This document shows, in pieces, positions 2,739 to 3,844 of a stretch of DNA of 64,000 bases; the first letter of the stretch is position 1, and every line of letters begins with the position of its first letter. The DNA comes from a virus, in IMG/VR virus record IMGVR_UViG_3300002144_000089, positions 1,098 through 65,097 of that record, one strand, 5' to 3'. The translations under genes were made by a program, and so were the position numbers. The notes below the pieces were generated by a model. That model was not told the DNA's origin. It did not search any database and saw nothing but the letters and a program-made list of their open reading frames with translations.

Positions 2739-3620
2739 ATGGCTGAATTTAACCCACAAGAATTTTCAAGCAATATGGAACAAAATCCATTAAGAAAATA
2801 TTTTAGACAACCTAAAGTTTATATTACGTTGCCTAGTAAAGGAAAATATTATCCCGAAGGGTCTCTAGATATTCCCGAAACCGGAGAATTTCCAGTATAT
2901 GCCATGACAGCAAAAGACGAGCTGTCAATGAAAACTCCTGACGCATTGCTTAACGGTCAAGCAACGGTTGACATGATTAAAAGTTGTATTCCGAGTATTA
3001 TTAATCCGTGGCATATGCCAAGCATTGACCTCGATGCTGTTCTTATTGCAATCCGTATTGCAACGTATGGCGACACATTAGAAATTACAACTAAAGTTCC
3101 AGGAACTGGAGAAGATCGTAAGTTTGATGTGGATCTAAGACAACTATTAAACAAAATGGTTACAGTAGATTATGTAAATTCATTAAATGTAAACGATATG
3201 GCAGTTACAATACGCCCGTTAACGTATAAAGAATTTACAGAAGCTAGTTTAAAAACATTCGAAGAGCAACGAATATTTGCATTAGTTAACAACGATGAAA
3301 TTTCAGATACTGAAAAGCTATCAAGATTTAATACTAGCTTTAAAAAGCTAACAGATCTTACAGTTACTACCCTATCAAGAAGTATTACATCTATTTCAAT
3401 AGGCGACACTACAGTAACTAATTCATCACACATTGAAGAATTTGTTAATAATGCCGACAAGCAGTTTTTTACATCAATAACTACTCACCTAGACGAGCAA
3501 AAGACTAAATTTCAAATTGCTCCAATTCCTGTTCATTCTTCGGAAGAAGACATTGCAGCAGGTGCACCTGAGAAATGGGAAGTTCCTATTACATTTGATC
3601 AGTCAAATTTTTTCGCATAA
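2739..3620 (+). CDS. gp26: Baseplate hub assembly protein, T4 gp26-like
   Basis: RQPKVYITLPSKGKYY...MTAKDEL...SIDLDAVLIAIRIATYGD pattern typical of gp26-family proteins; GGAG RBS upstream. Confidence 0.75.
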   Translation: MAEFNPQEFSSNMEQNPLRKYFRQPKVYITLPSKGKYYPEGSLDIPETGEFPVYAMTAKDELSMKTPDALLNGQATVDMIKSCIPSIINPWHMPSIDLDAVLIAIRIATYGDTLEITTKVPGTGEDRKFDVDLRQLLNKMVTVDYVNSLNVNDMAVTIRPLTYKEFTEASLKTFEEQRIFALVNNDEISDTEKLSRFNTSFKKLTDLTVTTLSRSITSISIGDTTVTNSSHIEEFVNNADKQFFTSITTHLDEQKTKFQIAPIPVHSSEEDIAAGAPEKWEVPITFDQSNFFA

Positions 3621-3651
3621 GGATCTTAGCGTGGAGCGTACCTGAGATCCT
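3605..3651 (+). promoter_or_regulatory. Candidate programmed -1 ribosomal frameshift signal (slippery site plus hairpin)
   Basis: In-frame overlapping heptamers A AAT TTT (3605-3611) and T TTT TTC (3608-3614). A 10-bp stem AGGATCTTAG/CTGAGATCCT (3620-3629/3642-3651, one G-U) follows 5 nt later. The -1 frame is open into the ORF at 3668. Confidence 0.7.
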
Positions 3652-3667
3652 AAGAGAAGTCAAGCGC

Positions 3668-3844
3668 ATGGAAAACGAACAAAAAGAAATCAAACACGAT
3701 TTATTAAAAATTTGTTGGTATATGCGGGGCGGTGTTACGTTAGACGAAGCATTTAACTTATCTCAAGAAGATAAAACTTTAATCAACGACATCATAAAAG
3801 AGAATTTGGAGACCACTAAGAAAAGTGGCCTCCCATTCTTTTAA
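3668..3844 (+). CDS. Short gp51-like baseplate/tail chaperone (58 aa, absent from the ORF track); probably the C-terminal part of a frameshift fusion
   Basis: Translated by hand: MENEQKEIKHDLLKICWYMRGGVTLDEAFNLSQEDKTLINDIIKENLETTKKSGLPFF*. It sits directly after gp26-like, and T4 gp26 and gp51 are also neighbours. Confidence 0.65.
   Translation: MENEQKEIKHDLLKICWYMRGGVTLDEAFNLSQEDKTLINDIIKENLETTKKSGLPFF

Follow-up and report, generated by a model that had tools for sequence, protein, structure and literature searches.

Does a single gp26-like baseplate-hub assembly gene yield both a short and a long protein? The question is raised by the gene at positions 2739 to 3620 (plus strand) of a stretch of viral DNA of 64,000 nucleotides (nt), here called the window, which comes from an uncultured giant marine phage and covers positions 1,098 to 65,097 of the IMG/VR record IMGVR_UViG_3300002144_000089. 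An original prediction, made from the letters of this stretch alone, had proposed a programmed -1 frameshift cassette at the gene's end, fusing its product to a downstream gp51-like open reading frame (ORF) of 58 amino acids (aa) in the manner of the gpG/gpGT chaperone pair of phage lambda. Comparison of the locus with its relatives indicates that the gp26-like gene is very likely decoded in two ways, via a -1 ribosomal slip at the heptamer T_TTT_TTC, which would give short and long forms of a hub chaperone. We regard the cassette as a probable -1 frameshift of the G/GT style, within the gp26/gp51 family.

The gene ends with ...GAT CAG TCA AAT TTT TTC GCA TAA (3597-3620), the stop codon lying at 3618-3620. 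As predicted, this end holds two overlapping heptamers of the form X_XXY_YYZ in the 0 frame, A_AAT_TTT at 3605-3611 and T_TTT_TTC at 3608-3614, the latter being the proposed -1 slip site. Conservation is limited to T_TTT_TTC. The upstream heptamer is lost in relatives that carry AGT, CAT, TAT or CGT in place of the Asn codon (Ser, His, Tyr or Arg) and is probably incidental. In contrast, T_TTT_TTC was found in the same register in 78/78 evaluable loci of an IMG/VR scan that covered 80 relatives and in 9/9 loci of another scan, as well as in 11 GenBank jumbo phages (ten relatives and CBB), 10-40 nt ahead of the stop codon. The most distant homologues, in XacN1, RAS14 and RsoM2USA, have T_TTT_TTT instead, within T7-T9 runs; runs of this kind could also permit polymerase slippage in these phages.

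An in-frame heptamer by itself is common, and hence unremarkable alone. The codon choice at this one is different. The Phe-Phe codons are TTT TTC in 81/81 unique relatives, while TTC makes up 18% of the Phe codons elsewhere in these genes, and the preceding codon ends in T in all 81 as against 67% at comparable wobble positions elsewhere. Judged from the alignment, this fixation at synonymous positions is nucleotide-level selection, and it is conservation, not the fold or the heptamer alone, that lifts the cassette above chance.

The reading frame entered by the proposed slip is conserved as well. In the window, the -1 frame is stop-free from 3599 to 3844 and runs into the 58-aa ORF, as had been predicted, so that the products would be 293 aa in the 0 frame and 292 + 76 = 368 aa after a slip. 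The extension read after the slip occupies 3614-3844 (plus strand, 76 codons and a stop), and what a gene caller sees as the 58-aa ORF (3668-3844, plus strand) is its distal part. Every relative examined, 14 GenBank jumbo phages and 9 + 78 IMG/VR loci, has an open -1 frame of 58-79 codons. Beyond the stop it extends for 58-75 codons in the ten GenBank relatives and CBB, where it opens just upstream of the heptamer, and for 71-74 codons in the 9 + 78 IMG/VR loci, one of which is shortened by a contig end; the homologous extensions of XacN1, RAS14 and RsoM2USA have 68-79 codons. The +1 frame closes within a few codons in nearly all relatives, typically 3-14.

Before the heptamer, diversity by codon position tracks the 0 frame (0.135/0.046/0.311); directly past it, including the 20 codons ahead of the window's ATG, it tracks the -1 frame (0.308/0.154/0.407), with values that agree with those over the remaining extension. 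By this measure, purifying selection acts on both frames, and -1 coding selection starts at the slip site. From FFR on, the -1 peptide could be aligned gap-free in all groups, with a conserved FFR..LL...PEEI, while the 0-frame tails past Phe-Phe consist of 1 to 11 unrelated and unconserved residues. The extension is predicted to form three helices (predicted local distance difference test, pLDDT, 86.7). Scans of it against Pfam and PHROGs returned phrog_18291, of unknown function, and otherwise chance matches only, and none of its homologues bore a Pfam label among the matches listed (best 120 of 1444). Gene callers give these listed homologues lengths of 58 to 89 aa. The predicted tryptic junction peptide of the long form in the window is WEVPITFDQSNFFR, and the 0-frame C-terminal peptide ends in FFA.

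Could the extension instead be a gene of its own? The 58-aa ORF or its homologue would then be translated separately, by ordinary initiation or by coupled termination-reinitiation, and the heptamer would merely be the codons of a conserved Phe pair. The window's ATG at 3668 does have a weak purine-rich site upstream (AAGAGAAG, 8 nt 5' of the ATG), so the predicted lack of a clear Shine-Dalgarno sequence holds only roughly; AGGAG- or GGAG-type sites precede the majority of the window's genes. In addition, several GenBank records annotate the small ORF, some with the ATGA or TAATG overlaps typical of coupling, and gp26 of phage T4 retains Phe-Phe without a heptamer. However, the window's ATG codon is ATG in 20/71 unique relatives and absent in 51/71, and 35/71 have no ATG at all across extension codons 3-24. 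With many relatives lacking a start codon of their own for the downstream ORF, its independent initiation, which the original prediction had named as evidence against a fusion, is disfavoured. Furthermore, the conserved peptide and the -1 periodicity run from the heptamer, upstream of any start, TTT TTC and the wobble T before it never vary, contrary to codon usage, the extension is fused in frame to related PF12322 proteins elsewhere (see below), and no downstream ORF is annotated in PA5oct or RaK2. We consider two separate genes unlikely.

The third element of the cassette is a stem-loop at 3620-3651 (plus strand; AGGAUCUUAG / CUGAGAUCCU), the proposed frameshift stimulator, separated from T_TTT_TTC by a spacer of 5 nt. 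The predicted stem of 10 bp is present, with 3 further inner pairs, and the centroid structure has -16.4 kcal/mol. This stability is unexceptional on its own (z = -1.6; 13/200 shuffles as stable). When the window's pairing was applied to 70 distinct relatives, 74% of the cells could pair, compared with 33-47% after the 3' partners were slid by 1-3 columns, and the covariation score was 0.216 versus 0.152 in shuffles (0/500 shuffles attained 0.216). Compensatory GC>AU or CG>UA double changes occur at the lower-stem pairs 14-43, 15-42 and 18-39; for example, a change from Arg AGG to Lys AAA in the 5' arm is paired with a synonymous change from Leu CUN to UUR in the 3' arm. The base of the hairpin, with such changes, is conserved in the window's clade. 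Atu_ph07 and Phosso have strong structures of -33 to -35 kcal/mol that begin 5-7 nt past the heptamer. An Rfam scan of 3450-3950 found no family. Aligned across relatives, as the original prediction had suggested, the junction thus keeps its heptamer and its open -1 frame, and the stem shows some covariation in the window's clade.

These elements also bear on transcriptional slippage, in which RNA polymerase would add one U in the T-run, so that a fraction of the mRNAs encodes the fusion in frame. Such slippage would have nearly the same protein outcome, and the site is a homopolymer (T6 here, T7-T9 in XacN1, RAS14 and RsoM2USA). Known cases of polymerase slippage involve runs of about 7-9 or more, for which T6 is short. 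Moreover, the X_XXY_YYZ register, the invariant C past the run and the conserved stem with its 5-nt spacer all point to the ribosome. Contigs from public sequencing runs placed on the window (3 RNA runs and 1 DNA run) showed no indels at the T-run, contigs being blind to rare variants. Transcriptional slippage appears improbable as the source of the long form. The RNA contigs of two runs start near 3666-3673. Error-prone as homopolymer runs are, a sequencing error or a decaying gene that splits one true ORF can hardly account for the locus, given the same run length and frame relation in ~100 independent assemblies and isolates, purifying selection on both frames, and, with regard to sequencing error, the identical stretch assembled in DNA runs of several studies.

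What kind of protein does the gene encode? The 293-aa product of the 0 frame, the proposed short form, matches PF12322 (T4_baseplate) with an E value of 4.5e-12 and 46.6 bits (curated cut-off 24.5) and the baseplate hub family phrog_150 with an E value of 1.8e-14. A GGAG Shine-Dalgarno site lies upstream of the gene. In tblastn, the gene is 25-34% identical to its 'baseplate hub' counterparts in the jumbo myovirus group of RaK2, 121Q, GAP32, PA5oct, Atu_ph07 and Phosso, while blastn of the region against GenBank phages gave no matches. The AlphaFold2 model of the 293-aa form (pLDDT 84.5) has a template modelling (TM) score of 0.83 to a BFVD entry named 'baseplate hub assembly protein, T4-like'; a fold search against AFDB Swiss-Prot found no convincing match. 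The protein family is abundant in marine and aquatic metagenomes, with >7600 protein clusters.

If a long form is made by slipping here, do other phages encode it directly? An exhaustive protein-cluster search with the 78-residue extension gave 217 clusters. In about 17 of these, the members are PF12322 proteins 319-351 aa long whose C-terminus is the extension, fused in frame through the junction ...x-F-R-x-x-I-L...P-E-E-I. A further candidate for a natural fusion, P0004 (383 aa), was rejected as a tandem-duplication assembly artefact. On three contigs with fusions (L101, L102 and L103), PF12322 genes form a tandem pair, a short one (287-312 aa) followed by a long one, next to a tape-measure-like gene; in L102, the strand opposite the pair encodes an 829-aa protein and the portal. 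The tandem genes thus resemble the window in synteny, in the extension on the long copy and in the short copy, which lacks the Cys pairs typical of T4 as does the window's gene. They differ in being two diverged paralogues, with 34% identity over 96 residues, whereas the window has one gene and a proposed slip.

Neither tandem copy appears to use a slip site. The long genes have no heptamer, and the sole short gene with TTTTTTC meets an immediate stop in the -1 frame. In complete genomes, we counted one PF12322 gene each in RaK2, 121Q, PA5oct and Atu_ph07, and two in T4 (26 and 51). From these gene counts and the tandem genes without a usable slip site, the same pair would therefore have two alternative solutions, either a single gene that slips or two genes that do not.

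T4 itself offers the closest view of a two-gene solution. Residues 1-201 of T4 gp51 are PF12322 (E 3.9e-52), followed by a C-terminal addition, and gp51 homologues have a second precomputed Pfam domain, PF28602. The gp26-like alignment matched the gp51 family with an hhalign probability of 93.8%. T4 gp26 ends in EFFELL*, with the codons TTC TTT and without a heptamer, and gene 25 comes next; its Phe-Phe aligned with the invariant Phe-Phe of the slip site. As proposed for the window, T4 has a PF12322 body in common to both proteins, a short form that ends at Phe-Phe, a long form with an extra helical C-terminus and a tape-measure gene nearby. The gp51 tail and the extension share the motifs F-K-LL-x-N-P-D-E-V and Y...NM-I-P-x-E-R, or, in the more general form shared with T4, F-[KR]-x-LL..P-[DE]-E-[IV] and Y...NM.P.[ED]R. 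In contrast, T4 uses two divergent genes without a heptamer (TTC TTT) for what would be the same job as one gene with a -1 slip in the window, the window's extension is ~20 residues longer than the T4 gp51 tail, and its clade lacks the zinc-ribbon Cys pairs of T4.

From these comparisons we conclude that gp26 is the T4 counterpart of the short product and gp51 that of the predicted long one. That the extension and the gp51 tail are homologous is likely but not established. Their match was seen with family alignments only, and hhalign of the extension against the single sequences of T4 gp51 and gp28 gave probabilities <1%. The proposed gp51-like ORF does not hold up as a gene, but stands as the C-terminal part of a long form corresponding to gp51, with moderate similarity. 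In T4, gp26 and gp51 are hub assembly chaperones, and gp51 is required yet absent from the particle (PMC3004832). Such behaviour is what one would expect of a long form made in small amounts.

How far does the analogy with lambda reach? In lambda gpG/gpGT, and also in P2 E/E+E', products with a common N-terminus arise via a -1 slip at X_XXY_YYZ near the end of the short frame, as proposed here, and the lambda gene adjoins the tape-measure gene, as here. The lambda tail assembly chaperone (TAC) gene lies on the same strand, directly upstream of the tape measure, whereas the window's gene is adjacent but divergent, and the slippery sites differ (U_UUU_UUC in the window, G_GGA_AAG in lambda). The analogy is strengthened by the tandem short and long PF12322 genes and by T4 gp26 and gp51, both of PF12322, and the predicted G/GT-type chaperone pair is supported to this extent.

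Some of this may already be in print. A passage of PMC10885494 cites Vladimirov, Gautam and Davidson 2022 (Virology 566:9-15) for some T4-like phages with a short gene and a long fused gene and no frameshifting, and a passage of PMC12846349 cites the same work for TAC-N/TAC-NC isoforms and poly-T slip signals in the TAC-N genes of T4-like phages. To judge from these citing passages, the general idea, and perhaps the TTTTTTC slip too, may have been published. The word frameshift is absent from the papers describing the RaK2-like phages, PA5oct, Atu_ph07 and CBB.

Several observations weigh against a frameshifted gp26/gp51-type pair. Both arms of the hairpin also encode conserved residues (R-I-L and E-I-L), and because of this its conservation is partly due to coding; the enterobacterial group has no convincing stem after the heptamer. 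We regard the conservation and covariation of the hairpin as supportive but not decisive. Some independent initiation at the window's ATG at 3668, with its weak AAGAG site, is possible. The extension (170 sequences) matched the C-terminus of gp51 in hhalign with an E value of 1.4e-4 and a probability of 53% over the last 35 residues, which is a moderate match, and a fold search of the extension model against BFVD gave no informative match. A fold search of the PDB found no solved relative of the gp26-like protein, and similarity of the gp26-like gene to known TAC families was not found (Pfam E up to 1; no PDB match). The frameshift is unmarked in all 18 GenBank records inspected for annotation, the trans-frame protein being deduced from sequence. 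Finally, the window's record is a 66-kb IMG/VR fragment of about 19% estimated completeness, and a second PF12322 gene may lie elsewhere in this phage.

The 856-aa tape-measure-like gene at 90-2660 (minus strand; phrog_58, tail length tape measure protein, E 1e-8) is the divergent neighbour of the gp26-like gene, as the original prediction had stated. The order portal, tape-measure-like gene, divergent gp26-like gene recurs in Phosso, PA5oct, RaK2 and L102, and a tape-measure-like gene also adjoins the gp26-like gene in 121Q, GAP32, BF and XaC1. In PA5oct and CBB, the tape-measure-like homologues are virion proteins, and the gp26-like homologues are not among the virion proteins detected by mass spectrometry. 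On the contig of a two-gene relative (GCA_015689235.1), the portal gene adjoining the tape-measure-like gene holds an intein (Portal_T4, Intein_splicing, Portal_T4). At 2690-2705, upstream of the gp26-like gene, CATAAATATAAATG is similar by eye to the T4 late-promoter motif TATAAATA.

A zinc ribbon made up of two Cys pairs (CPxC ... CxxC) is found in T4 gp26, in gp51 and in most homologues from jumbo phages. The marine clade of the window has VPGTG(E) and AAGAP(E) instead, at 3096-3113 and 3555-3572 (plus strand; approximately residues 120-125 and 273-278 in the gp26-like protein). Because they are missing from the short paralogues of the two-gene lineages as well, the Cys pairs are probably not essential to the PF12322 family.

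Downstream, a GC-rich hairpin of 10 bp at 3808-3833 lies within the last codons of the extension (ETTKKSGLP) and forms a terminator-like site on the minus strand, 12 nt past the stop of a convergent minus-strand gene of 716 aa that ends at 3845; the two genes abut without a spacer. This hairpin, which was noted on both strands, is possibly a two-way terminator. The 716-aa ORF (3845-5995, minus strand) has near-identical tandem repeats rich in Gly, Pro, Thr and Gln (PGATGGQTGQAPAPKPGQT) and long Ala/Gly-rich stretches, and scans against Pfam and PHROGs gave no match. Further on, a 149-aa ORF (6867-7316, minus strand) has a GIY-YIG-like N-terminus, as read from the translation only, and a SegE_GIY-YIG gene lies near the locus on the contig of a relative.

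How, then, would one gene give two proteins? On the evidence of the signals, their conservation, the -1 coding selection from the slip site and the natural in-frame long forms, we infer a slip, its efficiency and a chaperone role of the products along the following lines. Most ribosomes would read TTT TTC GCA and terminate at 3618-3620, releasing the 293-aa short form. A minority would pause over U_UUU_UUC (3608-3614) against the stem-loop 5 nt downstream, where the two tRNA-Phe could re-pair one base back, and 76 codons would then be read in the -1 frame, starting with CGC (Arg). The resulting 368-aa long form would have its first 292 residues in common with the short form and end in a three-helix tail. 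With such a pair, one gene would stand in for the short and long PF12322 proteins encoded elsewhere by two, as in T4 gp26 and gp51. As the analogy with lambda G/GT suggests, the short form would be abundant and the long form rare, and the two would work jointly on the hub and the tape-measure protein in tail initiation without entering the virion.

If the slip is real, the long product is unannotated in the jumbo-phage records inspected (RaK2, 121Q, PA5oct, Atu_ph07 and relatives), in which the small ORF would be spurious or absent, and gene callers break it up into two ORFs on those phage contigs, marine and freshwater, that were examined. In cultured phages that carry the slip, the stoichiometry of the two forms would be testable by mutating seven bases. 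The occurrence of one-gene-plus-slip and two-gene solutions would further provide an independent argument for T4 gp26 and gp51 as a short/long chaperone pair. More tentatively, and with doubt prevailing, the TTTTTTC slip in PF12322 genes may be both unpublished and the ancestral route to the T4 gp26/gp51 pair, with the 'catalytic' gp51, long a puzzle, as the GT-type minor long form of a tail assembly chaperone. If that were true, T4-type hubs and lambda-type tails would have one assembly logic in common.

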